This document shows positions 28,103-64,000 of a stretch of 64,000 nucleotides of DNA, one piece after another. How positions within the stretch are numbered: position 1 is the first letter of the stretch; each line of letters begins with the position of its first letter. The DNA is from a virus: positions 1 to 64,000 of the IMG/VR virus record IMGVR_UViG_3300035670_010691; one strand, given 5' to 3'. Both the position numbers and the translations under genes were made by a program. A model generated the notes under the pieces. That model worked only from the letters and a program-made list of their open reading frames with translations. It did no database searches and was not told the origin of the DNA.

Positions 28103-28106
28103 TTAA

Positions 28107-28135: not shown

Positions 28136-28153
28136 ATATACAAAATAAAATGT

Positions 28154-43536: not shown

Positions 43537-43559
43537 TATATTTAAAATTAATAAAGGTT

Positions 43560-44501
43560 ATGAATAATTTTATTTTACTCTCTCATTGGAACGGAAGATT
43601 TGGAAATAGAATGCATCAATATGCTTATGGTGCTACTTATTCTAAATTAAATGATGTTGATTTTATATTAACATCTGATTGGGAAGGAACGTTTTTATTT
43701 AAACATCAATTTCACCGAGTTTGTGATAATGATGAAGTTCGTTTATACCGAAATCAAAGTGATAATCAATTTCATACTCTTGATATGCAAGAGATGATTT
43801 TAAAGAAAAATTATCCCGATATAAAATTTATTAATCCCGAAAACCCCGAAACAAATTACAAAAAAGTTGATAATCCTGTTTGGTTTGATTCAGTTTGTGC
43901 ATATAACAAATCTATTTTTGAAAAAATGTCAAAAGATTATTTATTGAGAGTTTTTAAATTTTCAGATTTGGTAAAAGAAACTGATGCTTATAAATATTGG
44001 TCTGAAAGACAGGGTACATATGATATTGCTCATTTAAGAAGAGACGATATTTCAAATCCCCAATATAACCAACAAAACGTTCAGGGATATTCCGTAGTTT
44101 CTCAACAATCATATTTTAATGCATTTAAAAAATATGGATATGACCCACAAAATATAATTTGGATTTCAGATGATCATATCAATAAATGGCATAAAGATAG
44201 AAAACCAACTCAATTTTTTGGATGGAGATACCCCGAGGGTTCTGTCTATAAAGATGGGTTTGTGTTTGATTGGTTGGAAGACTTTTTAAAACTTTATTTT
44301 GCACGAACTATTTTTAGAGCAAATTCATCGTTTAGTTGGTGGGCTTCATTTCTTTCTCCTACCGCAAAGGTTTTTTCTCCTGTATTGGATAAACAACTCA
44401 TTTATGGTAGAGATGGTATAGAAGAAGAAATTGAAGTTCAATTTGTAGAAGGAAACCATCCACATTGGTTATATGGAGTTGATGATATTGTTATAAAATG
44501 A
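43560..44501 (+). CDS. GT11-like (alpha-1,2-fucosyltransferase-type) glycosyltransferase
   Basis: GRFGNRMHQYA, HLRRDD (HxRxxD), ANSSFSWWA. Confidence 0.75.
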   Translation: MNNFILLSHWNGRFGNRMHQYAYGATYSKLNDVDFILTSDWEGTFLFKHQFHRVCDNDEVRLYRNQSDNQFHTLDMQEMILKKNYPDIKFINPENPETNYKKVDNPVWFDSVCAYNKSIFEKMSKDYLLRVFKFSDLVKETDAYKYWSERQGTYDIAHLRRDDISNPQYNQQNVQGYSVVSQQSYFNAFKKYGYDPQNIIWISDDHINKWHKDRKPTQFFGWRYPEGSVYKDGFVFDWLEDFLKLYFARTIFRANSSFSWWASFLSPTAKVFSPVLDKQLIYGRDGIEEEIEVQFVEGNHPHWLYGVDDIVIK

Positions 44502-45214
44502 AAATACATTTAGTTTGTTTTAATACAAAATCATGTTATGGTATAGTTGATTATTATCAAGAATCATTTCAAAAATTATCTTCTTCTTTTTTAAAAAACG
44601 GAGGAGATGAGATACATCATTTTGTTGAGGAAACTTTACCTTATAAAAGTGATTATGAAAAGTATTTTTTTGAAGATAATAAGGAATCTGCATTTGGATT
44701 TTATGCATTTAAACCTTTGATTATTTCTCATGTAATGGAAGAAATACCTTTTGGTGATGTTATACTTTATCACGATGTTGGTAGACCAGAATACAATTAC
44801 GAAATAAAAAAAGACATAAAAAAGACTGTTGATTTAGTAAAAAAAACTTATATGGGTATAGGGTTGGGTAGAGGCCCTTTTTCACATAACGAATACACAC
44901 GAAATGATTGTTTTGAACTTATGAATTGTGATTTTGAAGAATTAAGACATTCTAAGCAACTTGCTGCAAATTGGGGATTTTATGAAAAAAATCACATGGT
45001 TTTAGAATTTATTTCCAAATGGAAAGAGTGGTGTTTAAATTATGAAGTTGTTAGAAGTCATTATGAGTATGAAATTAATCACCAAGAATTTTCAGCTCAT
45101 AGATGGGATCAATCTATTTTAACCAATTTACATTTTTTATATAATTTGGAAACATTACCAAACTTAAAAGAATATAGTTGGGAAAAAGACATAAATAATT
45201 TTTTACATGAATGA
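44498..45214 (+). CDS. Putative glycosyltransferase-like protein
   Basis: FKPLII, LYHDVG, HRWDQSILT motifs; cluster context. Confidence 0.5.
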   Translation: MKIHLVCFNTKSCYGIVDYYQESFQKLSSSFLKNGGDEIHHFVEETLPYKSDYEKYFFEDNKESAFGFYAFKPLIISHVMEEIPFGDVILYHDVGRPEYNYEIKKDIKKTVDLVKKTYMGIGLGRGPFSHNEYTRNDCFELMNCDFEELRHSKQLAANWGFYEKNHMVLEFISKWKEWCLNYEVVRSHYEYEINHQEFSAHRWDQSILTNLHFLYNLETLPNLKEYSWEKDINNFLHE

Positions 45215-45870
45215 TAGTCGTTGCAAGTCATAATAATTTAGATACATTAGGTTGGATTGTAGAAGACTTATATAGAATAGATTTAAATAATCATGAAGTT
45301 TGTATTATTGATACAAATTCAAATAATTTGGAATTTAAAGAAAAATTTCATATATTAAGAAATGAGTATCCTTATTTTAAATTTATTAATTTAAATTATA
45401 CTTGTTGGGATAGTGGAGCTTATATTTGGGCATATAATAATCTAAAATCTGAACGGTATATATTTTTACAAGATTCGTTACGAATATTGGATAAAAATTA
45501 TATCAAGTTAATAGACCAAAATTTAGATTTATACGATGTTGTTGCTCATATAAATTTCAAATATCATTACGAAAATGAGGAACAAAAAAATTGGGTAGAA
45601 GACGGTATATTATTTAATGAATTACCCGAAGATGCAATATTCGGTCCTATTTTTGGTGTAAAAAAAACAACATTAGATAAGATACCTTCTTATTGGTTAA
45701 AACATCCGACAAATAAAAATGAAGGTTGTGGTATGGAAAGACGATGGAGTTTAATGTTTAATCAAATTGGAGCATCAAAGAAATATTTGGAAATTGAAGA
45801 TATTCCAAATGAGGTTACTATATATAATACAAGGAAGTATATACATAAATTATTTTATCACAGATTATGA
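45211..45870 (+). CDS. Putative GT-A fold glycosyltransferase
   Basis: IIDTNS, WDSGAY, YIFLQDS, GMERRW. Confidence 0.5.
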   Translation: MIVVASHNNLDTLGWIVEDLYRIDLNNHEVCIIDTNSNNLEFKEKFHILRNEYPYFKFINLNYTCWDSGAYIWAYNNLKSERYIFLQDSLRILDKNYIKLIDQNLDLYDVVAHINFKYHYENEEQKNWVEDGILFNELPEDAIFGPIFGVKKTTLDKIPSYWLKHPTNKNEGCGMERRWSLMFNQIGASKKYLEIEDIPNEVTIYNTRKYIHKLFYHRL

Positions 45871-46883
45871 AAATAGAAAATAAAAAATTGGCATTAGTTT
45901 TAGGTGGAGGTGGTTTCATAGGAGGTCATCTGGCAAAACGATTAAAAGAACAAGGATATTGGGTAAGGGTAGTTGATATTAAACCTAAGCACGAATATTA
46001 TGAATTAGATGAGTTTTGTCATGAATATATTGAAGGTGATTTGAGAGATTCAAGTTTAGTTTCCCGAATTATGTATTCACCAAATCAAAGAGCAGAGAAT
46101 GATAAAGAAAATTCATTTGATGAAGTTTATCAACTTGCTGCGGACATGGGAGGAGCTGGTTATATCTTTACAGGTGATAATGATGCAAATGTAATGCATA
46201 ATTCAGGTCTAATTAACTTTAATGTTGCATACGAAGCAAGTAAAAAAAGTGTAAAGAAAATTTTATACACTTCATCAGCTTGTATATACCCCGAACATAA
46301 TCAGTTAGACCCTGATAACCCGAAATGTGAAGAGTCATCTGCATATCCCGCAAACCCCGACTCCGAGTATGGTTGGGAAAAATTATTGAGTGAAAGATTG
46401 TATTTATCTTTTCACCGAAATTATGGATTAGATGTAAAGATTGCAAGACTACACAATATATTCGGTCCGTATGGAACGTGGGATGGTGGTAGAGAAAAAG
46501 CACCTGCGGCAATTTGTAGAAAAGTTATTCAAGCACCCGAAGGTGGTGAATTAGAAATTTGGGGTGATGGAAAACAAACCCGGTCTTTTCTTTATATAGA
46601 TGAGTGTTTAGACGGATTAAGAATTTTAATGGACTCAAATGAAAATCAACCTTTTAATATTGGTAGTGAAGAAATGATTTCCATAAACGAATTTACCAAA
46701 ATGATTATCGGTATAAGTGGAAAAAATTTAAGTATAAAAAATATACCAGGTCCAGAAGGAGTCAGGGGTAGAAATTCAGATAATAATTTAGTTTATTCCC
46801 TTTTAGGTTGGAAACCAACAATACCACTTAAAGATGGTATTACAAAAACATACCGATGGATTGAGACACAAGTAAATGAATAA
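45867..46883 (+). CDS. GDP-mannose 3,5-epimerase-like SDR
   Basis: GGGGFIG, QLAADMGGAGYI, SSACIYP, YGWEK, WDGGREKAPAAICRK, GVRGRNSDN are all GME signatures. Confidence 0.88.
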   Translation: MKIENKKLALVLGGGGFIGGHLAKRLKEQGYWVRVVDIKPKHEYYELDEFCHEYIEGDLRDSSLVSRIMYSPNQRAENDKENSFDEVYQLAADMGGAGYIFTGDNDANVMHNSGLINFNVAYEASKKSVKKILYTSSACIYPEHNQLDPDNPKCEESSAYPANPDSEYGWEKLLSERLYLSFHRNYGLDVKIARLHNIFGPYGTWDGGREKAPAAICRKVIQAPEGGELEIWGDGKQTRSFLYIDECLDGLRILMDSNENQPFNIGSEEMISINEFTKMIIGISGKNLSIKNIPGPEGVRGRNSDNNLVYSLLGWKPTIPLKDGITKTYRWIETQVNE

Positions 46884-47925
46884 AGAGTATTCACCAAAAA
46901 TATTAGTTACAACTGGTGCTGGAAACACAATTAAAGGTGGGGCCGATATTTGGACTAACCATTTTCTAAAATGGGTGTGGCCTACTTTACCTGATAAAAA
47001 AGAGTGGTTTTTACTTATAGACTCAAAAAGACCTGCTCAATTTGAAGAAAGATATTTACCAAAAGGACTTCGATACCACTTTCATGGTGATGATCCAGAA
47101 GTAACAAAAGATTGGTTGAATAGAGCTTCTGTTATACATTTTTTACATTCTCATTATCATAAAAGACCACACATTTGGCATTTTGAAGATAAGTTTGGAA
47201 CTATTTTTGTTCATGCATATCCAAGAGATATGATTTCGGTTATAGATAAAATACCAGAATTAAAATTATTACAATTTAATACAAAAGTAGATGCCGAGTG
47301 GTATGATGATTTTCTTCTTACATTTAATAGAAGAATTTGGATTGGATGTAATCCAAGTCAAATGTTTGATAATTTTCCAAATTATAGCTATAATGTTCCA
47401 AACTTTTATGAATTTCAACTTAATGCACCCCTAACAAATCATGTAAATAATGGAAAAGTTGGATACGCAGCAAGAATAGAAACTCGTAAGGCATTTCACT
47501 GGATGCACGGTGTTGAGGGATTGGCTTTGGTAGAACAAATGGATTTAGAAAATTTAAGAGCAACCACAACTTATACATTTCCTAAATTGGATGTTTATCA
47601 GTATCACCCCGATATTCATCAACATTTTATGAATAAAAATTGGGGTATATTTCATGGAGCTCATTTCCAAGAACCATTTGGATATAACATATTTCAAGCA
47701 GTAGATTATGGTAAATTACCAATAATAAATCATGATTGGTGCCCCGAAGTGGAATACAAATATAGAGCTTCAACTATGAATGATTTTCAAAGGATGATTA
47801 AACAAATTCTAAAAGATTCCCACCAAGAGAGAGAAGAAAATTGGTTGAGATTAAAACAATATATGAAACGATTTGATAATAGGGAAGAGTGGGTTGATAA
47901 AGTCAGAACTGCAATATTAGCATAA
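46876..47925 (+). CDS. Putative GT-B (GT4-like) glycosyltransferase
   Basis: GGADIW near the N-terminus, ARIETRK, EPFGYNIFQAVDYG resembling the ExF-x-E motif. Confidence 0.6.
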   Translation: MNKEYSPKILVTTGAGNTIKGGADIWTNHFLKWVWPTLPDKKEWFLLIDSKRPAQFEERYLPKGLRYHFHGDDPEVTKDWLNRASVIHFLHSHYHKRPHIWHFEDKFGTIFVHAYPRDMISVIDKIPELKLLQFNTKVDAEWYDDFLLTFNRRIWIGCNPSQMFDNFPNYSYNVPNFYEFQLNAPLTNHVNNGKVGYAARIETRKAFHWMHGVEGLALVEQMDLENLRATTTYTFPKLDVYQYHPDIHQHFMNKNWGIFHGAHFQEPFGYNIFQAVDYGKLPIINHDWCPEVEYKYRASTMNDFQRMIKQILKDSHQEREENWLRLKQYMKRFDNREEWVDKVRTAILA

Positions 47926-47937
47926 TTTTGACTATGT

Positions 47938-47946
47938 ATATTTATA
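47938..47946 (+). promoter_or_regulatory. Putative late promoter motif ATATTTATA inside the glycan cluster
   Basis: In the largest intergenic gap within the cluster, 14 nt before ATG 47961. Confidence 0.55.
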
Positions 47947-47960
47947 TATAAACCTCTTGG

Positions 47961-48740
47961 ATGCCACTTTTAAATTTACAAAGAATATACGAGTTTATTA
48001 CTCATAATCATTCTTTTAAAAAGGATGTAAAGGGTAAAGAGTATAAAGAATTCCAACCTGTAAAGTATCGTTGGACTCATGGTGCAACGGATTATAATAT
48101 GGGTGACGGTCTTTTAGTATATTCCCTTATTCATCATTTACGGGCAAAAACTTGTGTCTGTCTTGGAAGTGGCGGTGGGTTCATTCCAAGAATAATGACC
48201 GAAGCTCGTTTGGATTTATACGATAGTAAAATATTTGAAGGAGAACGTCTAATAGAATGGGGGGATACTGGAACTACAATTCTTGTTGATGCAAATAATG
48301 GAGTTGGTGGTAATCCTGATTATCTTGATAAATCTTCTTTTTTTAGAGAATATTATCCAATTCGTTTAATAGTAGATACTACTGAAAACGCGTACTACAA
48401 CTTTTTTGTCAAAGAGGATATAAAGATAGATTATTTACATATAGATGCAGGTCACTCTTACGAAGATGTGAAACGAGATTTTGATTTATACACAAAACTC
48501 TTACAACCACACGGAATTGTTTCCATACACGATACAGATTCTTCATATGAAAACGAATATATTGTTACCGAAGATATAAAATCACAAGATTATCATCATG
48601 AATTTAACGGCCCTCAACAGTTGATAAGAGAATTAAAAGACAATCCCGAGTGGGAGATGTTTAATCTTTTCAATCACGGTATCAAAAGAGATAAACCATC
48701 AACAACAGGACTAACAATATTACAGAGATGCAAAAACTAA
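47961..48740 (+). CDS. Class I SAM-dependent methyltransferase (Methyltransf_24-like)
   Basis: CLGSGGG, LHIDAGHSYEDV, SIHDT. Confidence 0.8.
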   Translation: MPLLNLQRIYEFITHNHSFKKDVKGKEYKEFQPVKYRWTHGATDYNMGDGLLVYSLIHHLRAKTCVCLGSGGGFIPRIMTEARLDLYDSKIFEGERLIEWGDTGTTILVDANNGVGGNPDYLDKSSFFREYYPIRLIVDTTENAYYNFFVKEDIKIDYLHIDAGHSYEDVKRDFDLYTKLLQPHGIVSIHDTDSSYENEYIVTEDIKSQDYHHEFNGPQQLIRELKDNPEWEMFNLFNHGIKRDKPSTTGLTILQRCKN

Positions 48741-49570
48741 ATTTAGTTACAGTTGTGGGTCATAACATTACTATGTTACCTCATATGATAAACCATTATA
48801 AAGATACGGTTGATGAGATATATGTTGTTGTTTATAAACAACACAATAATGATGGAATTGAAGAACAAGTCAGAGAATTGGGAATAAATCCTTATTTAGT
48901 AGTTACCGAACCAAAATTTAATTGGGAAAAGGTAACAGAATTATATAATCAAGTAAAACAAACCAAACCTGATGAATGGTGGATAGTGAGTGATGACGAT
49001 GAATTTCATGTTTATCCAAAACCAATCAGAGAAATGATAGAAGAATGTGAGGAAAATGGGTGGGATTTTATTACAGGTGGTTTTTTAGATAGAATAGGAC
49101 CTGATGGAACTTTTCCAGTTATTACTAATGAAAGTAATATATGGGAAGAATTTACAAACTGCGGATTTTTTAGAAATCCAATGAGTGGGGCTTGTCCAAA
49201 TAAAGTATGTGTAATGAAGGGTTCAGTTGATGTAACAGGGGGTCAGCACTATGTGTCTGTAGGTGATAGCGATACTTGGAGAGAAAGAGGATGGAACCAT
49301 CCAAAACGATATCCACCTAAAAAAGGATTTGTTCAAGTTCATCATTTTAAATGGGATAGTTCGGTTTTAAAAAGATTACAAGATGTCGCAAATACCAAAA
49401 CTGACTATTCATATTGGAAAGAATATAAAAAAATGTATAGAAATATTCAATTAAATAATTTTCGTATTGACATTAATAATAAAAATTATTATATTGTACC
49501 TATGTCTAAAAATACATATGATGAGTATCCATATTGGAAAATTATAACTCAAAAAATAATTGAAATATGA
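48728..49570 (+). CDS. GT2-like glycosyltransferase
   Basis: LPHMINHY, WWIVSDDDEF (DxD), GGQHYV, HHFKW. Confidence 0.7.
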   Translation: MQKLNLVTVVGHNITMLPHMINHYKDTVDEIYVVVYKQHNNDGIEEQVRELGINPYLVVTEPKFNWEKVTELYNQVKQTKPDEWWIVSDDDEFHVYPKPIREMIEECEENGWDFITGGFLDRIGPDGTFPVITNESNIWEEFTNCGFFRNPMSGACPNKVCVMKGSVDVTGGQHYVSVGDSDTWRERGWNHPKRYPPKKGFVQVHHFKWDSSVLKRLQDVANTKTDYSYWKEYKKMYRNIQLNNFRIDINNKNYYIVPMSKNTYDEYPYWKIITQKIIEI

Positions 49571-51030
49571 AAGATAAGTTAGCTATTATAGTTCCTTATC
49601 GAGATAGAGAAAAACACTTAAATGTGTTTGTACCTCATATTCACAATTTTCTAAAAGACAAGGGAATTGACTATGATATTTTTATCGTTGAGCAAGCAGA
49701 CGATAGGCCATTTAATTATGGTAAGTTGTGTAATGCTGCAGTAAAAGAAGTGGGTGAAGAATATACTTACTTTGCATTTCACGATATTGATATGTTACCT
49801 ATAAGTGATGAATGTGATTATGGTTATCCTGATGTTCCAACTCACTTGGCAACAAACGTAGAAGCACATGATAACAAACTTCCATATCCACAATATTTTG
49901 GTGGAGTGGTTTTAATTAATCGTGAAGATTTTGAAAGAGCAAATGGATATTCAAATGAGTATTGGGGATATGGATTCCAGGATATAGATTTACTTTATAG
50001 ATTACAAAGAAGTGGTGCTTATCTTGAAAAATTTTATGATAAAAATAAAACTTATTCAAACTATGATGAACTTGATATTTTACCGTATAGAATAGAAAAA
50101 GTTGAAATATCAAGAAATAAATTATCACAGAAATTTAAAACAAATATTTTTAATAAAGAAAGTTTTTTATATGGAACACTTAACCCATTAACAAAAAAAC
50201 TTGTAGATGAATCTTTCACAATTTCATTTTGGTTTAATGACAGATTTGAAAGAAGTATTAATAAAAATTTATTTTGTTTTGAAGGATATGACACTGGATT
50301 GTTTTTAAATAATGGTAATCAAATAATAGGACAAATTTGGAACAATAATAACCAACATAATCAAGTTATTTTAAATTATTCAAGAAATGTATGGAATTAT
50401 GTTTTGTTTGAATATGATAAAGAAAATAATGAAATTAATTTAACCCTAAACAATAAAACAGCAAAAGAAAAATTATCTGATAATTTCAAACTTTTTGATT
50501 ATAAAGACAAACATATAAAAATATCTGATAAAAATTCTGATATAGAATTATCTGAAATATTTGTTTTTGATACTATTTTGACTGATGATGCTAAAAAACA
50601 ATTTTATTTTGAAGGTAATTCTTGTCTTAATAAATTAAAAACTCAGCATGGGGTAAGTCCAGTTTTACATTTTAATTATACTAAAACCTATTCAAAAAAT
50701 ATTCTTTTAGATAATGGGTTATTTTTAAATCATATTACTATACAAGGAAATACCGAAACTAATGAAAAAAATATAGAACTTACAGATATTGTATATCTTC
50801 CATTTAGAATTCATGGAAAATATAAATCACTTTCACATGGTAATGATAGAAATATTATTAATAATTATTATACCTATAATCCTGATATAAGTGAAAATGC
50901 CGATATTTTTTTTCATGAAGTATTACAAAATAAATTAGATTTAAAAAGTATTGGGTTATTGAATATAAAATACAAATTGTTAGACAAAATTAAAAGAAAT
51001 GAGTATGAACTTATTAGAATTGTTACATAA
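49567..51030 (+). CDS. GT7 (beta-1,4-galactosyltransferase-like) with LamG-like insert, paralogue 1 (degenerate acceptor motif)
   Basis: IIVPYRDR, PFNYGKLCN, FHDID, YFGGV, NGYSNEYWGYGFQDID; insert with FTISFW...WNYV. Confidence 0.85.
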   Translation: MKDKLAIIVPYRDREKHLNVFVPHIHNFLKDKGIDYDIFIVEQADDRPFNYGKLCNAAVKEVGEEYTYFAFHDIDMLPISDECDYGYPDVPTHLATNVEAHDNKLPYPQYFGGVVLINREDFERANGYSNEYWGYGFQDIDLLYRLQRSGAYLEKFYDKNKTYSNYDELDILPYRIEKVEISRNKLSQKFKTNIFNKESFLYGTLNPLTKKLVDESFTISFWFNDRFERSINKNLFCFEGYDTGLFLNNGNQIIGQIWNNNNQHNQVILNYSRNVWNYVLFEYDKENNEINLTLNNKTAKEKLSDNFKLFDYKDKHIKISDKNSDIELSEIFVFDTILTDDAKKQFYFEGNSCLNKLKTQHGVSPVLHFNYTKTYSKNILLDNGLFLNHITIQGNTETNEKNIELTDIVYLPFRIHGKYKSLSHGNDRNIINNYYTYNPDISENADIFFHEVLQNKLDLKSIGLLNIKYKLLDKIKRNEYELIRIVT

Positions 51031-51508: not shown

Positions 51509-51734
51509 TAATTTGGAAGAACGTGGAGTCAAGGCACTTGAGTCCATTGCAAAATCGTTACAAGATATAAACGATTGGGTATATGATTTAGATGCAGATA
51601 TGTGGCAAGAAAGATTGGAATGGTATCTAAATGAGTTTTACCAAATAGCAAAAGCAAAAACAGTAGGTTCAACAAACAGACCACCTCGAGATGCCGAGAG
51701 AACATCGGAACAAACGGACTCAAACGAAGAGTAA
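51489..51734 (+). CDS. Small hypothetical protein
   Basis: Protein-like helical sequence overlapping both neighbours. Confidence 0.65.
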   Translation: MAEKKTDNLEERGVKALESIAKSLQDINDWVYDLDADMWQERLEWYLNEFYQIAKAKTVGSTNRPPRDAERTSEQTDSNEE

Positions 51735-55993: not shown

Positions 55994-56736
55994 ATATATT
56001 ATATAAACAACCGTATTGGATAAAATATAAATGGGATTTGTCATATCACGATGATAATCAATATGTTACTCCATTCAATAAAGAACAAAACTTGGAATTA
56101 AATAATTGTTTTCATCAAAAAAAATGGACATTGAATGTATTTTTTAAATTAATACCAAATTCATTTACTGATAAAATATTTTGTATCATAGGAAAGCCGG
56201 GCAAAAATATGGGAATCACATTTAATACTGAAAGTGAATCTCTTGCTTTTGAATTTTGGACGAAGGTTCCAAAAAAAGATGACCAATTTAATTGGGTTGG
56301 ATTTTATGGAATTACTAAAAGTGATTTAGAAAATTTGGATTTAGTCCTTTCAGTTGTTAGAGAAAATAATAAAATATTACTTTATAAAAATTATGATTTA
56401 ATAAACGAACAGGAATTTGAAGGTGAATTAATAGACGATTATAAGGAAGAAGGTATTATAATCGGGGCAGGTAATCCTGGTACATTTGTTGAAGAACACA
56501 GATATTTTGGTCAATTTGATATTAAGCACTTATCGTTTATTAAAAACAAAACAGATATTAATTTTGCACTTGAGACATTTACAACACCAGTTGAAAAACT
56601 GTTGAACAAATCTCATTATAACGATATTCTTTTCTTATTTGATTTTAAACATAAAAATAATTTTAACATCATTTTAGATGAATCAAAAAACAATAACTTT
56701 ATGGAAAAACTTCCACTTGAATTTTTAACTAATTAA
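55990..56736 (+). CDS. Stand-alone LamG/concanavalin-like domain protein
   Basis: WTLNVFFK, IIGKPGKNMGI (compare ILRRPGYDYGL and IVSIPGYNTGL in the GT7 inserts), ILDESKNNN. Confidence 0.55.
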   Translation: MNILYKQPYWIKYKWDLSYHDDNQYVTPFNKEQNLELNNCFHQKKWTLNVFFKLIPNSFTDKIFCIIGKPGKNMGITFNTESESLAFEFWTKVPKKDDQFNWVGFYGITKSDLENLDLVLSVVRENNKILLYKNYDLINEQEFEGELIDDYKEEGIIIGAGNPGTFVEEHRYFGQFDIKHLSFIKNKTDINFALETFTTPVEKLLNKSHYNDILFLFDFKHKNNFNIILDESKNNNFMEKLPLEFLTN

Positions 56737-56738
56737 TT

Positions 56739-58187
56739 ATGTCAGATACAAACGAATTACGAGATTGGCGAAACAAAAATCTTAACTCTATATCACCAAG
56801 CTTTTGTGCAGCTAAATGGTATAATGCTTCTTTACATTTGGGTCATGGATTTACCAACTCCTGTCACTTACCACTTCCCCATCCTGTTGATTTAGAGGAA
56901 ATTAAAACTAATCCGGGAGCACTTCATAATACGAAGTTAAAGAAAGAAGCACGTAAAATGATGTTGGATGGTAGAAGACCAGCTGAATGTTCTTATTGTT
57001 GGAAAGTGGAGGATATTGGTAGAGATCACATTGCAGATCGTGTTTATAAGTCACGTATTTACAAAGAAGAAGATATTTCTAAATTAAGAGATTTACCTTG
57101 GGATGTGGATGTGTTATTAAAAACAGTAGAGGTTTCATTCGATAGAACTTGTAATTTTGCTTGCTCATATTGCAATTCAGGTTATTCCACGACATGGGGT
57201 AAAGAAATCAAAAAATTTGGACCTTATCAAAAGTTTAAAACAGTATCCGCGGGCGCTTATTACGCTGACGGAAGTTGGGCTGATAAATTTGGAAAACAAA
57301 ATGATGATAATCCATATGTTCAAGCATTTATTAGATGGTGGCCAGATCTTGTAAAAGAATTAGAAGAAATTAGAATCACAGGTGGAGAACCAACCATGTC
57401 TCATAATTTTTGGAGTTTCTTGGATGTCGTTAAGAGATATCCATCCAACAAATTAAGACTTGCTGTTAATTCTAATTTAGGTGGTACTTTTGATAGAATA
57501 CAAAGACTAATTGACGCTACTCACGAATTACCAATTAAAGAATTTGATTTATATACGTCTAACGAATCTTTTGGTAAGCATGCCGAATATATTAGAGATG
57601 GTTTAATTTATCCCGAGTGGAGATCAAATATGGTTAAGTTTATTGAAAGAGCAGAATTTAGGTCACTAACCGTGATGATGACGATAAATTCTCTTTGTCT
57701 TTTCAGTATTACCGAATTTTTGGACGATATGATTACTCTAAAAGAAAAATATGGTCCAAACAGACCAAATGTCGATTTTAACATTTTAAGATGGCCAGCA
57801 TTCATGTCTCCACTCGTATTACCAAATTCTGTAAAAAATGACTTACACCGTAAGTTTAAAACTTGGTATGACGAAAGAAGAAAAAATGAATGGTTTGATG
57901 AATTGTTTTCAGTAGGTGAAAAGGCACAGATTGAAAGATTAATTGACTATATTGAAGTAGTTGAAACAGGTCACGTAACAACAGAAAGAGAAAATGAATT
58001 ACATTTTCATGACTTTAAATCATTTTATTCTCAATATGATGAAAGACGTGGTAAGAGTTTTGTTGAAACTTTTCCTGAATTAAAAGATTGGTATGAATCA
58101 ATTGAAGTTGATAAAACCATACCTGATGTTGAATTGAGAAGTGGTGAAATTACTCACTTTGAAGACGGTGAATATAATCCAAATTAA
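56739..58187 (+). CDS. Radical SAM protein with N-terminal twitch-like Cys domain, paralogue of 54572
   Basis: FCAAKW...SCHL...ECSYCW; CNFACSYC; ITGGEP. Confidence 0.88.
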   Translation: MSDTNELRDWRNKNLNSISPSFCAAKWYNASLHLGHGFTNSCHLPLPHPVDLEEIKTNPGALHNTKLKKEARKMMLDGRRPAECSYCWKVEDIGRDHIADRVYKSRIYKEEDISKLRDLPWDVDVLLKTVEVSFDRTCNFACSYCNSGYSTTWGKEIKKFGPYQKFKTVSAGAYYADGSWADKFGKQNDDNPYVQAFIRWWPDLVKELEEIRITGGEPTMSHNFWSFLDVVKRYPSNKLRLAVNSNLGGTFDRIQRLIDATHELPIKEFDLYTSNESFGKHAEYIRDGLIYPEWRSNMVKFIERAEFRSLTVMMTINSLCLFSITEFLDDMITLKEKYGPNRPNVDFNILRWPAFMSPLVLPNSVKNDLHRKFKTWYDERRKNEWFDELFSVGEKAQIERLIDYIEVVETGHVTTERENELHFHDFKSFYSQYDERRGKSFVETFPELKDWYESIEVDKTIPDVELRSGEITHFEDGEYNPN

Positions 58188-58190
58188 ATC

Positions 58191-59333
58191 ATGTATGGGT
58201 TAGATTATACATTAAGATGGCAAGAACCATTTGGTGGTTGGGGAAATCATAGTGACTTTTATAAAAGCAAATACCAAAAAATTTTAGATAATAACGATAC
58301 TGGGTTATGTAATAGAATTTTTCATTGGGAAATTGCATACGATTTAAATAAAAGACATGATTTCAAATACACAATTCTTTTACCATATCGGTTTTGGCCA
58401 GAAATAGAATTGATAAACTTACCTTATACAAAACCTGTTTTTTACGGAGAATACGAATTTGGTAGCAATTATATCGTTGAATATGAAAGTCTTAATTTTA
58501 AAACCGTCTTTGATATAGAAAGCGATGATGTATATAAAGCAACTCAAATTGATAGAGATTATATACAACAACTTTATTTAGATGAAACTAAAAAATTGAA
58601 AGATAATCACTATTATTCTGATTTTAGTTATTATAGTTTACGTGAATTGGTTGAACTAAAAAATCCACAATTTTTATACCATTTACCCGATGTTTCACTA
58701 AAATACAGACCCCTTTCGTCTATAAAATTAAAACATAAATTTATGGATGATGTTATAACAAATTTTACAAAAAACGCCATAGGATTTCATATTAGAAGAA
58801 ATAATGGAGTTAGTTTTAATGAAGATTCAATTTACAAAAACAATCCACAGTTAAAAAAAGAATTTTTGTCTATTAGAAAAACATCTCATATTCAAAATCC
58901 ATTATACCAATTCGTTGATGATGAAAAATATTTTAAAATAATTGATAAAATTTTAAAAATACTTCCTGATCATGATATTTTTATAAGCATGGATTTACCA
59001 AAACAATTTTTGGAACCTTATTATAAAAATTTTGGAAATATGATATTTTCAAGTCATGATATATTACCAGAAATAAAAAATTATTTATTAGAATCAAAAA
59101 TAAATGTTGAAAGATTAGAAAATTATGCAAATGCTATTTTAAATGTAACTGATTTATTTTGTTTATCTAATTGTAATTATTTAGTGTGTAGTTATCCATC
59201 AACTTATAGTGAATTTGCATATGAATATAAAAATACACCATATTCGAGTATAAAGTTGGAAGTAGATGATATTGTATCAGATTTTCTAAAACACAAAAAT
59301 GTTAAATTTAACAAAAATAAAAAATTATTTTAA
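58191..59333 (+). CDS. GT11/GT23-like (fucosyltransferase superfamily) protein
   Basis: GLCNRIF, GFHIRR, IFISMD, DLFCLS, STYSEFA. Confidence 0.6.
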   Translation: MYGLDYTLRWQEPFGGWGNHSDFYKSKYQKILDNNDTGLCNRIFHWEIAYDLNKRHDFKYTILLPYRFWPEIELINLPYTKPVFYGEYEFGSNYIVEYESLNFKTVFDIESDDVYKATQIDRDYIQQLYLDETKKLKDNHYYSDFSYYSLRELVELKNPQFLYHLPDVSLKYRPLSSIKLKHKFMDDVITNFTKNAIGFHIRRNNGVSFNEDSIYKNNPQLKKEFLSIRKTSHIQNPLYQFVDDEKYFKIIDKILKILPDHDIFISMDLPKQFLEPYYKNFGNMIFSSHDILPEIKNYLLESKINVERLENYANAILNVTDLFCLSNCNYLVCSYPSTYSEFAYEYKNTPYSSIKLEVDDIVSDFLKHKNVKFNKNKKLF

Positions 59334-60004
59334 TGTTTCAAGAATGGCCAATTGGTAGACCACCAAAAGAATTACAAAGACCTGAATTATCACAATTAGA
59401 TTTTGAATGGTCTAACCCGCAAGAAGTTATAGATTACTTTGAGAAAAAAGTGGCAAAGTTTGCAGGTTCAAAGTACGGAGTTGCGGTTGACTGTTGTACC
59501 AATGCTATTTTTCTCACTCTTAAGTACTTAAACCAACCACAAGAAATTACAATACCCACCCACACTTACATTTCCGTTCCAAACTATATTAAATTAGCGG
59601 GTTACGATGTAAAGTTTGAAGAAAGAGAATGGAGTGGAGTGTATCAACTCAACCCTCTTGATGTATGGGACGGTGCTGGTAGATGGATTGAAGGTATGTT
59701 TCAAGGTGAGTTTATGTGTTTGTCCTTTCAGTTTAAAAAAAGATTACCAATTGGTAGAGGTGGTATGATACTTACCGACAACGAAGATGCGTATAAGTGG
59801 TTGAAGAAAGCACGGTATGATGGTAGAGACCTCACCAAATCACAAGACGAAGATGATATTGATATGGTGGGATATCATATGTATATGACTCCCGAAGACG
59901 CCGCTCGTGGTATTTTACTTATGGATAAAATTTCGAGTGTTAATAATGACACTCATTCAAATAACTCATACAAAAATATTTTAGAAAATAATGTTAAGTT
60001 TTGA
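59333..60004 (+). CDS. DegT/DnrJ/EryC1/StrS family PLP aminotransferase (short form)
   Basis: FEKKVAKFAG..AVDCCTNAIFL, PTHTYISVP, WDGA, LSFQFKKRLPIGRGG. Confidence 0.85.
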   Translation: MFQEWPIGRPPKELQRPELSQLDFEWSNPQEVIDYFEKKVAKFAGSKYGVAVDCCTNAIFLTLKYLNQPQEITIPTHTYISVPNYIKLAGYDVKFEEREWSGVYQLNPLDVWDGAGRWIEGMFQGEFMCLSFQFKKRLPIGRGGMILTDNEDAYKWLKKARYDGRDLTKSQDEDDIDMVGYHMYMTPEDAARGILLMDKISSVNNDTHSNNSYKNILENNVKF

Positions 60005-60812
60005 TAAAAATACAAAATTATTTATAGACAAAAGATATAAAGATAGACATATAAATTTTTATCAAACTGATTTAGAAGATACCTATTTTCAAAATAAAAA
60101 TAAAATGGGGGAATCTTGGTACTATTTTGATAATCCAATAGATTATAAATTTAACAAATTAGGTTTTAGATTTAAAGAAATAGAAGAAGTGGATGATAAT
60201 TTTCTACTATCATTTGGATGTTCTTACACAGAAGGAGTCGGATTGCATTATGAAGATTTGTGGGTTACAAAACTTGCAAATAGTTTAAATTTAGATTTTA
60301 TGAATTTTGCAAAATCAAGTTCTTCTGTTGATAACATTATTTGGCAAACAATATTTATTTCAAATTATTTAAAAAAAAATAATAAAATTCCTAAATTTGT
60401 TATTTATCAAATACCTTTTTACACTAGAACACAGTTTGTTGATATTTGGGGTGACGAAATTGATATTGTTTCCCAAAACTTGGAGATGAATTATAAAAAT
60501 TTAAGTTTTATTGATGAATATTATAAATATTTTTTTATAGAAACTCAAATTCAACCAAAAATTAATATACTTTTTTTAACTAATATGGCAAGTATTATTT
60601 GGGAATCGATGGGTTCGAAAGTTATATATTTTTCATTGGAACCTGATTCTGAATCAAAAGAAATTAACTCATTTTTAAATAATGAAGTAATTAATATATA
60701 TGATTACACAGTACATGAAAAAAATAAATTAGCAAGAGACTTATCCCATAATGGGAGATTTGGTCATGATATAATTGTAGAAGAATTACAAAAAATAATT
60801 AAAAATGGTTAA
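59991..60812 (+). CDS. SGNH/GDSL-like hydrolase or acyltransferase-like protein
   Basis: FGCSYTEG (GDS-like block I), ARDLSHNG (DxxH block V). Confidence 0.55.
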   Translation: MLSFDKNTKLFIDKRYKDRHINFYQTDLEDTYFQNKNKMGESWYYFDNPIDYKFNKLGFRFKEIEEVDDNFLLSFGCSYTEGVGLHYEDLWVTKLANSLNLDFMNFAKSSSSVDNIIWQTIFISNYLKKNNKIPKFVIYQIPFYTRTQFVDIWGDEIDIVSQNLEMNYKNLSFIDEYYKYFFIETQIQPKINILFLTNMASIIWESMGSKVIYFSLEPDSESKEINSFLNNEVINIYDYTVHEKNKLARDLSHNGRFGHDIIVEELQKIIKNG

Positions 60813-61818
60813 TGTTAATAATGAATGGGAACCTCTTAAAGAAGTAATACTTGGTACGGTTACTAACGCAAACATGCCCACACATGGGAAAGATTTACAT
60901 TGTATAAATTACGCAGACCAAGATAGTATTCCAATTGACGAAGACGGATTTTGGAATAGTAAAGTTTATTTTGAAACAAATGAAGATTTAGAAAATTTAA
61001 AAAATACGTTAGAATCAGCTGGTGTAAAAGTTCATAGACCCTCTCCAATTCAAACCAGAAATGTTATTTCAAATGGTTATTGGAAAACAAATCAATACTA
61101 TACATTTTGCCCAAGAGATACTGTAACTGTTATTGGTGATACTATTCTTGAGTCACCGATGTCCCTCCGTTCCCGTCAATATGAAACCGATTGTTTTAAA
61201 GATATTTTTATACAAAAAATGAAAGAAGGTGCAAATTGGGTATCTGCTCCAAAACCACGTTTAACAGATGATAGTTACCAAAGAGAAGACTTATCCCAAC
61301 TCACTTTACGAGATATAGAACCTGTTTTTGATGCCGCTAATATTCTTCGTTGTAATGATGATATTCTGTATCTAAATTCCAACACAGGAAACAAGTTGGG
61401 AGCACAATGGTTACAGAACTTTTTGGGTTCGAAATATCGGGTACACGTCCTTGAAAACATTTATTCATACATTCACATAGACTCAACTATTGCACTCCTT
61501 AGAGAGGGATTATGTCTTCTAAATCCCGAACGAGTAAACGAAGACAATATGCCTGAATTATTAAAAAGTTGGGATAAAATTTGGTGCCCTCCAATGGTTG
61601 ATATTGGATATCATAAAACTAATAGAGCATCGGTATGGATAGGAGTAAATCTACTTTCCATAGATGAAAACACAGTAGTGGTTGATAATAGACAAACTGA
61701 ATTGATAAAAGAACTTAAAAAGTATGGTATTGACACACTTGATGCACAAATTCGTCACTCACGAACTCTTGGTGGTTCTATGCATTGCGTAACAACAGAT
61801 TTATGGAGGGGAAAGTGA
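60805..61818 (+). CDS. L-arginine amidinotransferase (AGAT/StrB1 family)
   Basis: NEWEPLKEVILG, CPRD, FDAAN, HIDST, GGSMHCVT (catalytic Asp/His/Cys). Confidence 0.92.
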   Translation: MVNVNNEWEPLKEVILGTVTNANMPTHGKDLHCINYADQDSIPIDEDGFWNSKVYFETNEDLENLKNTLESAGVKVHRPSPIQTRNVISNGYWKTNQYYTFCPRDTVTVIGDTILESPMSLRSRQYETDCFKDIFIQKMKEGANWVSAPKPRLTDDSYQREDLSQLTLRDIEPVFDAANILRCNDDILYLNSNTGNKLGAQWLQNFLGSKYRVHVLENIYSYIHIDSTIALLREGLCLLNPERVNEDNMPELLKSWDKIWCPPMVDIGYHKTNRASVWIGVNLLSIDENTVVVDNRQTELIKELKKYGIDTLDAQIRHSRTLGGSMHCVTTDLWRGK

Positions 61819-63956
61819 AATTACTTATAATTGGTGGTGCTGGGTATTTAGGAACGGAATTATGTAAAAGAGCTCTCATAGATGAGCGTGATGTTACTGT
61901 TATTGATAATTTTACATATAATCAAACTAAATTAAAAAATGTAAAATATATTAATGATGATGTAAAAAATATTTGGAAGTACAAAAAAATAGTCGAACAG
62001 TTTGACAAAATTTATTATTTAGCATCACCAAGACTTAATGAACTTAACGATAGGAAGTTAATTGACGAACATCTTTTATATTTAGAAAATACAATTAAGA
62101 TGGTTCCTGAAAACTGTGATTTTTATTTTATTAGTAGTTGTAGTGTTTATGGAAAATCAAAAGAAATAGTAAATGAAAATTCACCTGTTCAGATTACTTC
62201 CTTATATTCTGAACTAAAAATTAGAAGTGAAGAATTAATAAAAAATTTACCAAATAATTTTAAAATATTTAGATTGGCAACTTTGTATGGTGTTGGTCAA
62301 AATCAAAGAAATGATATTTTAATTAATGAATTGGTTACAGATGTTATTAATAATAAAACTTTACAGATATATGATCCAGATTCTAATAGACCCCATTTAA
62401 ATGTAAGGGATTGTGCTTTAATATTAAATAACTTGATGTTTTCGGGGTTTGAAGATAAAATTTTAAATATTGGTTTTGATTTTCAAAACATTTCAAAAAG
62501 ACAAATAGTAAATTTAATTGAAGATATATTAGAAAGAAATTTATATGTTACTTTTAATGAAACAAATGACAGTAGAGATTACAAAGTTGATTTTTCTCTT
62601 TTAAAAAAAATAATTGATATTAAAGATGAGGATATATTATCATTTAGAGATGGGATTTATGAGTTATATGTTGGAAAAATTAATTTTGCAGTTGAGGATT
62701 GGGATAGTATAATTGATTATTATAGACCTAATGGTAGTTCAAAAACTTGGTATATGGAAGAGGAAGGAAAGTTAGATTATCCAAAAATGTGGGGATTTTG
62801 GAATATTTTTGATACTCACGATTCTCAACATAAAATGTTTTCTATTGAAAATTTTAATTCACTTTCAATTCCATCATTTAGAGACGAACATCATAATTTG
62901 TTAAAAGTAAATGAGGATTCAAATGAAAATTATGTTTATTTTATAAACATTTTTGATCCATCATATTTTAAAAGAAATGAAAAAATTGGATTTTCTACAA
63001 TTCATAAGAAGTATTTGGATGATTGTAGAAGAGGTAAATGTAAAATTATTTTAGGTCTTACGTTAGAAGGATATTCTGGTATAGAAAGTAACAGAGATTT
63101 AGAAATTTTAAAAAAATGGGTGATTTGGCAAAAATTACCAAAAAGTGGAGTTCTTTACATTTCAGGTAATATTAATATTGATAAACTTCAAGAAATCAGA
63201 AATTTAAATTTTGAAGTAGTTGGATTATCTCATTTTGAAATTTGGTTAAATTTTAAGACAATATCAGATAATCCAATTAAATTTAAAAAAGACACCACTT
63301 CAAAATTATTTTTAATGCATGCCAGAAACACACGTGATCATAGAGTTAAATTTGTTTGTGACCTTATTGAAAAAAATTTATTTGAACGTGGAATGATAAG
63401 TATGGAGGCATTTACCGCAGACGATGTTTTTGTAGAACATAAGTCACTAAATTCTCTTATTGAAAAATTACCTTTGGTTATCAATGATAATTTAAATCAA
63501 AATTTATGTAATGATGTAAATTTTAATGATTATGAAAAAACATTTGTTTCCGTAATATCCGAAACTTTAATTGAAAAGGAAACATTGTTTATAACTGAAA
63601 AGACGTGGAAAGCTTTATTTGTTGGGCATCCTTTTATAATGTTTGGAAATCCATTTACTTTAAAAAAATTAAAAGAATGGGGATTTAAAACTTTTGAAAA
63701 TTGGTGGGATGAATCATATGATGAAGAAATAGATTTAGATTTAAGAATTGAAAAGATACAGAAAATTTTATTAGATTTATCTAAAAAAACAGATGAAGAA
63801 TTGATAAAGATACGGGAAGAAATGATTCCTGTTTTAAAACATAATATGAATCATTATTATTTATTTTGTGAAAAAAAATATTGTTTAGACCACAATTCTA
63901 TATACCCAAATAAACCCCTACTAAAGATAATAAAAGATTTTTTAATAAAAAAATAA
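61815..63956 (+). CDS. NAD-dependent epimerase/dehydratase fused to a C-terminal SET..ITEK (GT10-like) domain; start revised to GTG 61815
   Basis: GGAGYLG, SSCSVYG, YSELK; C-terminal SVISETL..FITEKTWK..GHPFI..GFKTF..WDESYD; GGAGG ribosome binding site and GTGA overlap with the upstream stop. Confidence 0.75.
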   Translation: MKLLIIGGAGYLGTELCKRALIDERDVTVIDNFTYNQTKLKNVKYINDDVKNIWKYKKIVEQFDKIYYLASPRLNELNDRKLIDEHLLYLENTIKMVPENCDFYFISSCSVYGKSKEIVNENSPVQITSLYSELKIRSEELIKNLPNNFKIFRLATLYGVGQNQRNDILINELVTDVINNKTLQIYDPDSNRPHLNVRDCALILNNLMFSGFEDKILNIGFDFQNISKRQIVNLIEDILERNLYVTFNETNDSRDYKVDFSLLKKIIDIKDEDILSFRDGIYELYVGKINFAVEDWDSIIDYYRPNGSSKTWYMEEEGKLDYPKMWGFWNIFDTHDSQHKMFSIENFNSLSIPSFRDEHHNLLKVNEDSNENYVYFINIFDPSYFKRNEKIGFSTIHKKYLDDCRRGKCKIILGLTLEGYSGIESNRDLEILKKWVIWQKLPKSGVLYISGNINIDKLQEIRNLNFEVVGLSHFEIWLNFKTISDNPIKFKKDTTSKLFLMHARNTRDHRVKFVCDLIEKNLFERGMISMEAFTADDVFVEHKSLNSLIEKLPLVINDNLNQNLCNDVNFNDYEKTFVSVISETLIEKETLFITEKTWKALFVGHPFIMFGNPFTLKKLKEWGFKTFENWWDESYDEEIDLDLRIEKIQKILLDLSKKTDEELIKIREEMIPVLKHNMNHYYLFCEKKYCLDHNSIYPNKPLLKIIKDFLIKK

Positions 63957-63960
63957 AAAC

Positions 63961-64000
63961 ATGAAAATAGGTTTTATAGGAGTAGGAAAATTAGGAAAAG
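63961..64000 (+). CDS. Start of a Rossmann-fold dehydrogenase (possibly UDP-glucose/GDP-mannose dehydrogenase), truncated by window end
   Basis: MKIGFIGVGKLGK with GxGxxG. Confidence 0.55.
   Translation, partial: MKIGFIGVGKLGK

Follow-up and report, generated by a model that had tools for sequence, protein, structure and literature searches.

A conserved glycosyltransferase and radical SAM gene core behind the giant tail fibre of an uncultured aquatic phage: a candidate virion glycosylation system

IMG/VR record IMGVR_UViG_3300035670_010691 holds 108,914 bases of an uncultured aquatic phage; its first 64 kb (positions 1 to 64,000) are the window analysed here, and positions further along the record are called genome positions. 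Directly behind a giant tail fibre gene, the phage carries an island of glycosyltransferase (GT), sugar-nucleotide and glycan-tailoring genes. An eight-gene core of this island recurs in at least 80 related phage contigs, and its conservation in fixed order behind a giant fibre is the new result of this work. We found no published description of the core; the nearest papers are PMC7029224 and PMC12619734, the latter treating GT orthogroups of moraphages that are unrelated to it. We favour the reading, to which we give a little less than an even chance, that the island encodes a cytoplasmic, carrier-independent pathway by which the phage glycosylates its own giant fibre late in infection, and possibly further proteins of the virion as well.

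The giant fibre and the conserved core behind it

The fibre and the core genes are listed below; they lie, like all genes discussed, on the + strand, and locus counts here and later refer to 80 related IMG/VR loci.

33523..43536, + strand: giant tail fibre, 3337 aa, with a Peptidase_S74 chaperone domain at the C-terminus
46876..47925, + strand: core gene 1, GT4-like GT-B glycosyltransferase, by predicted fold
47961..48740, + strand: core gene 2, class I S-adenosylmethionine (SAM) methyltransferase of the Methyltransf_24 family (PF13578, E 2.9e-11; 75 loci)
48728..49570, + strand: core gene 3, GT2-type enzyme, Glyco_tranf_2_4 (PF13704, E 1.4e-7, above cut-off; 75 loci)
49567..51030, + strand: core gene 4, GT7a, of the beta-1,4-galactosyltransferase family, with a LamG-like insert (GT7N E 3.9e-23, GT7C E 1.6e-17)
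51489..51734, + strand: core gene 5, a conserved open reading frame (ORF) of 81 aa that overlaps the start of GT7b (50 loci, identity up to 81%)
51691..53139, + strand: core gene 6, GT7b with a LamG insert (GT7N E 3.5e-23, GT7C E 1.1e-19, Laminin_G_3 E 1.7e-15)
53136..54575, + strand: core gene 7, GT7c with a LamG insert (79 loci, identity up to 78%)
54572..55993, + strand: core gene 8, radical SAM 1, with an N-terminal twitch-type four-cysteine domain (NF033640, 317 bits)

An earlier note on this DNA, made from its letters, had placed the cluster directly behind a tail fibre. The 3337-aa ORF upstream bears this out: it ends in a Peptidase_S74 domain (PF13884, residues 3226-3286, E 1.8e-14) and has a baseplate wedge gene upstream of it, which identifies it as a tail fibre or spike with an intramolecular chaperone. 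Serine and threonine make up 26% of the protein, cysteine is absent, and there is a short collagen-like stretch. This fibre is the proposed acceptor of the glycan. The island lies inside the structural block, with baseplate and fibre genes on one side and terminase, portal and capsid genes on the other, on a single strand and translationally coupled.

The first core gene and 120 listed relatives match no Pfam family. PDB profile searches by sequence returned nothing significant for this GT4-like family, for Glyco_tranf_2_4 or for a GT10-like family described below, and fold prediction was therefore needed for all three. The model of 46876 (predicted local distance difference test, pLDDT, 91; predicted template modelling score, pTM, 0.88) has a GT-B fold, as the GT4-like call of the earlier note would have it. 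Its Foldseek matches include PimA (2gej, E 7e-10), BshA, tll1591 and GtfC; the predicted fold resembles enzymes that include partners of cytoplasmic protein O-glycosyltransferases, such as GtfC. The protein has an E-x7-E-like motif, EPFGY..EA, and the gene was found in 48 loci. 46876 is the likely candidate for the initiating transferase. The earlier GT2-like call holds for core gene 3; the GT2 match of another ORF, 45211, is weak.

The three consecutive GT7 paralogs match both halves of their family above the gathering cut-off (7N at E 1e-16 to 4e-23, 7C at E 1e-17 to 2e-19). Laminin_G_3 occurs in each, above the Pfam cut-off in two and weakly in GT7a, in agreement with the three GT7 enzymes and the lectin-like domains described earlier. 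Their alignment runs through the motifs of the animal enzymes in nearly unchanged form, VPYRDR, FNRGK, FHDxDMLP, YFGG and NGYSNEYWGWGFEDDDL, continues into the LamG insert of about 250 aa, which interrupts the catalytic domain, and resumes with a C-terminal His and DGL..L.Y. HD[IV]DM is invariant, and WGWG[FM]EDDDL is found in GT7b and GT7c; GT7b itself carries VPYRDR, FNRGK, FHDxDMLP, YFGG and WGWGFEDDDL. In GT7a, EDDD is changed to QDID (WGYGFQDIDL) and the second-position Asp is kept. The family typically has an unbroken catalytic domain and transfers from UDP-Gal or UDP-GalNAc. GT7b has 2704 homolog clusters in metagenomes.

The last core gene and its paralog radical SAM 2 (56739) score 317 and 295 bits against NF033640 (NCBIfam, cut-off 170 bits) and have both the CxxxCxxC motif and the N-terminal four-cysteine motif, which upholds the earlier count of two radical SAM enzymes. 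In radical SAM 1, Cys 24, 43, 85 and 88 are invariant and CxxxCxxC lies at 139-146 (C139, C143, C146); relatives carry one to six paralogs. In bacteria such N-terminal twitch (N_Twi) enzymes are rare, with 2 of 400 Pseudomonadota sampled, not counting one phage-like contig. One case is clearly chromosomal: it adjoins dnaE within an ABC-type O-polysaccharide locus that holds a Wzt-radical SAM fusion, three more radical SAM enzymes, a TylF methyltransferase that also matches Methyltransf_24, a WbsX GT, RmlC and RmlD. The fusion protein (854 aa; bacterial contig C19, 8579-11143) joins a Wzt ABC ATPase (ABC_tran) and a Wzt_C carbohydrate-binding domain to an N-twitch radical SAM domain, and suggests radical SAM editing of O-polysaccharide coupled to export. 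This locus supports the radical SAM enzymes and the methyltransferase as glycan tailors; it also keeps alive a rival reading in which host O-polysaccharide is the target. The label 'eukaryote-like', which the earlier note gave to the whole assembly line, fits the GT7 trio. It does not fit the radical SAM enzymes, with their relatives in a bacterial O-polysaccharide locus, or an amidinotransferase of the island that is closest to actinomycete StrB1.

The recurring gene order is SbcCD (where present), giant fibre, a few small ORFs, GT4-like, methyltransferase, GT2, GT7a, 81-aa ORF, GT7b and GT7c, then one to six N_Twi radical SAM paralogs and, after these, variable sugar-nucleotide and GT genes. 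A more distant subgroup is without the GT4-like gene and GT7a and keeps the rest of the core. Flanking sequence is long enough for this comparison in 46 loci; in 39 of these the methyltransferase has a fibre-like ORF upstream, a median 1.9 kb away. The core-bearing contigs form one far-T4-like lineage, with major capsid proteins (MCP) 54-69% identical to that of this phage, and include a complete, collinear genome of 237 kb (G001). In the uncultured huge phage LR756508 (484 kb), only a GT4-like homolog is kept at this junction (32% identity, E 4e-57), four ORFs (~3.8 kb) upstream of a homolog of the fibre C-terminus. The cultured relative Mel-JY01 has neither giant fibre nor island at the same junction.

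Among cultured phages, megablast of the island and tblastn of GT7b gave no match. The sole cultured-phage match of the N-twitch radical SAM is in an unannotated region of Ralstonia phage RsoM2USA, a 344-kb jumbo phage; the homolog (217327-218748, 39% identity) lies ~10 kb downstream of a 2540-aa ORF. A scan of bacterial genome contigs with GT7c gave two matches in metagenome-assembled genomes, labelled Pelagibacterales and Anaeromicropila. Both contigs are phage-like and carry the same core, and are therefore evidence for neither a bacterial origin nor a host; they show no evident bacterial genes and are probably mis-binned phage contigs. In Pelagibacterales genomes, GT7N-like ORFs are rare, short and weak, 3 of 301 lying above the cut-off.

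Island extent, a promoter-like motif and accessory genes

The island runs from 43560 to genome position 81380, that is, over 37.8 kb and 40 co-directional, mostly overlapping ORFs, about 13-15 of which are GT-like. The cluster of more than 20 kb recognised by the earlier note is thus real, and its supposed end at 64000 is not, since 20 more ORFs run on to 81380. About 20 tightly coupled genes had been counted, and there are 20 + strand ORFs within 43560-63956. Junctions in the window part range from a 44-nt overlap to a 4-nt gap, the two exceptions being gaps of 23 nt ahead of 43560 and 35 nt ahead of 47961.

None of the 40 ORFs reaches the level of a transmembrane (TM)-like segment (Kyte-Doolittle 19-mer >= 1.6), and Pfam finds no flippase, polymerase, ABC transporter or polyprenyl-phosphate transferase among them. 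The earlier observations of no Wzx/Wzy, ABC exporter or undecaprenyl-phosphate initiating transferase, and of no obvious TM segments, are therefore correct for the whole island, which does not have the make-up of a Wzx/Wzy- or ABC-transporter-dependent polysaccharide locus. What it holds are soluble enzymes that work independently of a lipid carrier. Virion glycosylation systems are marked by soluble GTs that the virus itself encodes, whether or not donor-sugar pathways go with them, and the island has such GTs.

The motif ATATTTATA occurs in 12 + strand copies in the 108.9-kb record, 9 of them within 60 nt upstream of a start against ~0.6 expected, such positions making up 5% of the record. 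The nine sites are at window positions 9594, 15177, 17181, 33494 and 47938 and at genome positions 87319, 92027, 94649 and 98091, most of them in front of a baseplate-module or portal/prohead-module gene, a giant tail protein gene or the fibre gene. Two motif copies concern the island:

47938..47946, + strand: exact ATATTTATA, 23 nt before the methyltransferase gene (second core gene)
43538..43546, + strand: one-mismatch variant ATATTTAAA, 22 nt before the first island gene

Both positions had been put forward as late motifs; the one at 47938 is exact and the one at 43538 is a variant. In relatives, where its background frequency is 0.005 per 80 nt, ATATTTATA stands before 11 of 38 fibre genes and before 9 of the 75 methyltransferase genes. 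It differs from the late motif of T4, TATAAATA, and by analogy with it is a candidate late promoter of this phage lineage. Early and replication genes instead have elements of a sigma70-like kind: TTGACA/TTGACT plus TATATT, seen at window positions 2840-2905 and 28103-28153 in front of peptide deformylase and primase, are candidates for early or middle promoters.

The remaining island ORFs of the window are these:

43560..44501, + strand: GT11-like enzyme, alpha-1,2-fucosyltransferase family (Atlas 0.97; 28 of the 30 nearest clusters are GT11)
44498..45214, + strand: 238-aa ORF (no Pfam, NCBIfam, PHROGs or PDB match)
45211..45870, + strand: weak GT2-like ORF, 219 aa (PF00535, E 0.008, 16.5 bits, below cut-off)
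45867..46883, + strand: nucleotide-sugar epimerase/dehydratase of the short-chain dehydrogenase/reductase (SDR) type (PF01370, E 3e-39)
50999..51508, + strand: 169-aa ORF, in 5 close relatives only
55990..56736, + strand: 248-aa ORF; 32 relatives have a weakly LamG/sialidase-N-like ORF at this position
56739..58187, + strand: radical SAM 2 (NF033640, 295 bits), a paralog 33% identical to radical SAM 1
58191..59333, + strand: possible fucosyltransferase-superfamily GT (FUT8_N_cat E 0.007, O-FucT E 0.009, below cut-offs; no PDB match)
59333..60004, + strand: short pyridoxal-phosphate aminotransferase of the DegT/LegC/PseC type, 223 aa (PF01041, E 6.5e-19)
59991..60812, + strand: 273-aa ORF, no family match
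60805..61818, + strand: homolog of the StrB1-type inosamine-phosphate amidinotransferase (phmmer to 1BWD, E 1.4e-99, 337 bits)
61785..63956, + strand: 723-aa fusion of an N-terminal SDR (PF01370, 1.1e-21) and a C-terminal GT10-like GT-B domain
63961..64000, + strand: start of a UDP-glucose/GDP-mannose dehydrogenase, with 19 further ORFs following to 81380

The first four island genes (43560-46883) and the cassette 58191-61818 are accessory. The GT11-like gene 43560 (PHROG glycosyltransferase, E 3e-4) is variable, with no homolog in the 80 related loci; of two ORFs called GT11-like in the earlier note it is the one that stands, 44498 having no match with any tool. PHROGs and NCBIfam gave almost nothing for ORFs 44498, 50999, 51489, 55990 and 59991. 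For the 'GT10-like' ORF 58191, the FUT8 and O-FucT matches are faint. Nucleotide-sugar enzymes are present as described, in the SDRs at 45867 and 61785, and so are methyl-, amino- and amidinotransferases, in Methyltransf_24 (47961), the short DegT (59333) and the StrB1-type enzyme (60805).

Beyond the window the island holds a GDSL protein, DUF5672, three SDRs, a GDP-mannose 4,6-dehydratase, four GT10-like paralogs, a PfkB kinase, an RmlC-like cupin and the split E1 alpha-like and beta-like subunits of a thiamine diphosphate (ThDP)-dependent enzyme, which we take to resemble the AviB1/AviB2-type enzymes that add two-carbon branches to deoxysugars. The GT10-like paralogs are of a 397-aa type with five domains in all (65105, 68728, 72360, 73522 and the C-terminal half of the 61785 ORF). 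Their predicted model is a GT-B fold whose best enzyme match is the Helicobacter pylori GT10 alpha-1,3-fucosyltransferase, on moderate evidence (pLDDT 75, Foldseek probability 1.0, TM-score ~0.4, Atlas lead 0.80).

The amidinotransferase homolog aligns with 1BWD over residues 1-335, its full length, at ~50% identity, and the stretches FDAAN, H[IV]DST and the Cys-bearing GG..HC, which we take to hold the StrB1 catalytic residues, align as well. No inositol-phosphate or deoxy-scyllo-inosose synthase family, which would supply inosamine phosphate, was found among the 40 island ORFs; the substrate of 60805 is therefore probably not inosamine phosphate, and is probably an amino sugar, free or in a glycan. 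Both the amidinotransferase and the short DegT have counterparts in S-SCSM2R, a cultured cyanophage: ORF309 (45% identity) and ORF305 (41% identity), the latter just as short as the DegT here. These two ORFs belong to a 10-gene cluster (228299-236332) of GTs, 2-oxoglutarate (2OG) oxygenases, the short DegT-like enzyme, a small radical SAM enzyme and the StrB1-type amidinotransferase. This cluster is more likely a glycan-tailoring cassette related to the one described here than a set of antibiotic genes.

Two further kinds of enzyme were seen near or within these islands. A NodU/CmcH-type carbamoyltransferase (window 5576-7288, PHROG E 7e-116) lies just upstream of the baseplate genes, as in the complete relative; a homolog within the glycan island of 5 related contigs suggests O-carbamoylation of the same glycan. 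In G001, two prolyl-4-hydroxylase-type 2OG-Fe(II) oxygenases (74784-76240) lie inside the glycan island; as they are rare in other loci, we set them aside as support.

CheckV rates the record 45% complete, which puts the genome at roughly 240 kb; its GC content is ~30%. The MCP is 56% identical to that of LR756508, 53% to Microcystis phage Mel-JY01, 52% to Flavobacterium phage immuto and 39% to Rhodothermus phage RM378, which places the phage among the far-T4-like myoviruses; an assignment to the pelagimyophages was rejected for the same reason. The window segment 43000-52999 is present in 13 datasets, all DNA metagenomes (subsurface, marine, freshwater).

Gene order begins with an early-looking block (helicase fragment, thymidylate synthase, SAM decarboxylase, cytidylyltransferase, peptide deformylase), followed by the carbamoyltransferase and by baseplate wedge and tail genes, including one for a 2173-aa protein. 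Primase and a fused SbcCD come next, then the 3337-aa fibre and the island; a multidomain ORF of 1646 aa separates the island from the terminase, portal and capsid genes. Within the early-looking block, window 830-3526 encodes thymidylate synthase, SAM decarboxylase (TIGR03330, E 9e-37), an RfaE-domain-II-like adenylyl/cytidylyltransferase and peptide deformylase; the RfaE-like enzyme may pair with the island PfkB kinase (genome 75845-76606) to make a heptose-type donor. In the tail region, two Pro-Thr-rich proteins (window 13763-17165) hold 24 and 38 PT pairs against ~5 and ~9 expected. SbcD and SbcC are fused in one 1051-aa ORF (window 29642-32797), which is 48% identical in the complete relative; Mel-JY01 has a single ORF of similar length at 38% identity, and the match in LR756508 is two ORFs. 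The 1646-aa ORF right after the island (genome 81553-86493) has cytidylyltransferase-like, HD and Ros/MucR-like domains, parts of which reappear in 912-aa and 179-aa ORFs (101097-104371), a polyprotein-like or cassette architecture.

What the island may make

From the observed gene content, synteny, promoter-like motif and lack of membrane steps, we infer the acceptor, the order of steps and the chemistry as follows. The variable sugar-nucleotide enzymes would turn host UDP-, GDP- and dTDP-sugars into rare donors, by way of SDR dehydratases and epimerases, UDP-glucose dehydrogenase, GDP-mannose dehydratase, the RmlC-like cupin, the split ThDP E1 alpha and beta subunits, and the PfkB kinase with the adenylyltransferase. 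The GT4-like enzyme 46876 would attach the first sugar to Ser or Thr of the fibre, and the GT2, the three GT7-LamG and the GT10- and GT11-like enzymes would lengthen the chain, the LamG domains perhaps gripping the fibre or the nascent glycan. Tailoring of sugars already in the chain would fall to the methyltransferase and the N-terminal-twitch radical SAM enzymes. In this phage the extra cassette of radical SAM 2, short DegT and StrB1-type amidinotransferase may convert a hydroxyl to a guanidino group by oxidation, transamination and amidination.

We favour decoration of the fibre because the enzymes are all soluble, the island sits in the structural module, the core is stably linked to a giant Ser/Thr-rich fibre, it shares a motif with structural genes, and its chain-extending GTs carry lectin domains. 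A fuller picture would be that a globally distributed, aquatic, jumbo-type phage lineage builds a heavily tailored oligosaccharide (methylated, branched-chain, uronic and here guanidino) directly on its fibre, in the cytoplasm and carrier-free, using animal-type GT7 enzymes with lectin domains and radical SAM editing within the chain. The system would be a counterpart of giant-virus fibril glycosylation, with the fibre glycan as a hypervariable determinant of host range or protection. We offer this picture tentatively, as one rather more apt to fail in some part than to hold throughout.

Several points weigh against a glycosylated fibre. That the glycan sits on virion proteins is itself something we infer, the late timing of ATATTTATA is read from its position, and richness in Ser and Thr is usual in fibres. 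The earlier note had proposed [ST]GS as a glycosylation site, and this did not survive. [ST]GS is enriched 2-8 fold over shuffled expectation in five tail and fibre proteins (window 12705-26934 and 33523-43536), yet it is equally enriched in tail proteins of Mel-JY01 and immuto, which have no island; the enrichment is therefore no evidence for glycosylation sites and is probably a lineage-wide structural feature of tail proteins. The bacterial radical SAM relatives are chromosomal: in their ABC-type O-polysaccharide locus one of them is fused to Wzt, and a methyltransferase of the Pfam family seen here is a neighbour. A host could bring such an ABC-type pathway, whose GTs are TM-free as well. 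The S-SCSM2R cassette of short DegT and amidinotransferase stands among GTs and away from fibre genes, and the predicted GT-B folds also match the T4 DNA glucosyltransferases.

Some of these points would suit a remodelling of the host envelope, in which soluble phage enzymes act at the cytoplasmic face on undecaprenyl-pyrophosphate-linked intermediates of O-polysaccharide or capsule, and a host initiator and exporter display the altered glycan. Such remodelling could block superinfection or stop the loss of progeny on cell debris. ABC-type O-polysaccharide assembly uses TM-free GTs, and the lack of TM segments in the island therefore does not exclude it. The chromosomal locus with four tandem N_Twi radical SAM paralogs, one fused to Wzt, speaks for it, as does an S-SCSM2R cassette that is not beside fibres, and it is the published reading of analogous GT and radical SAM islands beside pelagimyophage tail fibres (PMC7029224). 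It is a serious rival, though we think it rather unlikely. Exclusion functions would normally be expected early, and the island lies within the structural block, behind a structural-gene motif. By Pfam it has no Wzm/Wzt, WecA/WbaP-like or ligase gene, and the two ORFs of the complete 237-kb relative that are richest in TM-like segments have no Pfam match to exporter, initiating transferase or ligase families. The core also travels with the fibre gene, and the GT4-like gene persists by itself near the fibre homolog of LR756508.

A soluble product, whether a free oligosaccharide or a small molecule such as an aminoglycoside-like pseudo-oligosaccharide or glycoside, strikes us as improbable. Made in the infected cell, it might for instance harm rival phages or microbes, or serve as osmolyte or signal. 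The twitch radical SAM is weakly like BtrN, the DegT and the amidinotransferase ~50% identical to StrB1 mirror aminocyclitol chemistry, and the homologous S-SCSM2R genes were called 'antibiotic synthesis genes' by their authors (PMC12801897). Yet the amidinotransferase occurs in 3 and the DegT in 7 of the 80 related loci, so that amidino chemistry is accessory and not core. Neither a cyclitol synthase (2-deoxy-scyllo-inosose or myo-inositol-phosphate synthase) among the 40 ORFs nor an exporter in the island was found, and some 13-15 GT-like genes far exceed the known aminoglycoside pathways.

Hypermodification of the phage's own DNA, with the GTs building glycans on modified bases to evade restriction as in T-even phages and others with glycan-modified DNA, appears very improbable. 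GT-B models of the island match the alpha- and beta-glucosyltransferases of T4 by fold, virus GTs that hypermodify DNA with diverse glycans are known, and the relative immuto carries a 7-deazaguanine modification. Glycosylation of phage DNA goes with a dCMP/dUMP hydroxymethylase or another modified-base pathway, and neither a hydroxymethylase nor a DpdA route was found. The ThyA of the window (830-1816) reaches 282 bits with TIGR03284 (cut-off 108), which marks it at equivalog level as a genuine thymidylate synthase, and the complete core-bearing relative G001 has no ThyA-family gene (no PF00303 match). A TGT/DpdA gene (PF01702) occurs in 0 of 5 core-bearing records, and the island adjoins the fibre gene and not genes of nucleotide metabolism. 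The earlier note had kept DNA hypermodification as an alternative, and these searches found no route for it. What probability remains after the four readings is unassigned.

Significance and relation to known systems

Should the fibre prove to be the acceptor, glycosylated virions would no longer be a peculiarity of actinophages and giant viruses: among abundant aquatic phages they would matter greatly for host recognition or virion protection and help to diversify it, and the common annotation 'LPS genes' (lipopolysaccharide) in marine phage genomes would need revising. New to enzymology would be GT7 enzymes into which a LamG domain is inserted, glycan editors of the N-twitch radical SAM type and a StrB1-type amidinotransferase that acts on sugars. 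If host glycan is the target after all, a late-expressed, 40-gene module for rewriting it would also be unusual. The eight-gene core beside a defined fibre is a compact, clonable test system, and the cultured S-SCSM2R offers a living system for the amidino cassette.

Fibril glycosylation in Mimivirus and capsid glycosylation in chloroviruses are precedents for virus-encoded glycan assembly; our comparison with these giant-virus clusters follows what Notaro et al. and Van Etten et al. reportedly described. Like Mimivirus and other Megavirinae and the chlorovirus PBCV-1, the island has virus-encoded sugar-nucleotide clusters with dehydratases, DegT-type aminotransferases and methyltransferases, soluble cytoplasmic GTs, no lipid carrier, and a content that varies by clade around a fibre or capsid target. 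Unlike them, it belongs to a tailed phage with a bacterial host, has a core with no described giant-virus counterpart, and has a glycoprotein target that is proposed from gene context.

Phage-encoded GTs reportedly glycosylate virion proteins in mycobacteriophages (Freeman et al. 2023, cited in PMC12619734). There, as proposed here, phage GTs, sometimes with a methyltransferase, act on virion proteins in the cytoplasm. The mycobacteriophage systems comprise 2-4 genes, and what they modify in these actinophages is the C-terminal tail of capsid and tail-tube proteins, whereas this island has ~40 genes, its own donor-sugar pathways, radical SAM tailoring and linkage to a tail fibre.

Serine-rich repeat adhesin O-glycosylation (GtfA/B, GtfC) and TibC/AAH heptosylation likewise use soluble GT-B and GT-A enzymes, stepwise and carrier-free, on very long Ser/Thr-rich fibrillar proteins that have yet to be exported or assembled. 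Those systems are bacterial and tied to accessory Sec or autotransport secretion, and the island does not belong to them at the sequence level. With animal beta-1,4-galactosyltransferases (CAZy GT7) the trio shares VPYR.R, FNRG, H/S-D-x-D, YFGG, NG.SN.YWGWG.EDDD and the C-terminal DGL..L.Y; unlike these, it has a LamG domain of ~250 aa after EDDD, no signal anchor and three paralogs in a row. The amidinotransferase differs from StrB1 of streptomycin biosynthesis (1BWD) in its setting, a phage glycan island with no cyclitol synthase.

Pelagimyophages have a comparable 'host recognition cluster', and T4-like cyanophages have LPS-like gene clusters (PMC7029224); these too combine fibres with GTs, rfaE- and UGDH-type genes and radical SAM cassettes in low-GC marine myoviruses. 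In that work GT8 is the dominant family, the genes are read as modifying the host O-chain, and no conserved core of GT7-LamG and radical SAM genes is described. Unlike the pelagimyophages, which belong to the Cyano-T4 group and have genomes of 132-180 kb, the lineage described here is far-T4-like, with an MCP 52-56% identical to those of immuto, Mel-JY01 and LR756508.

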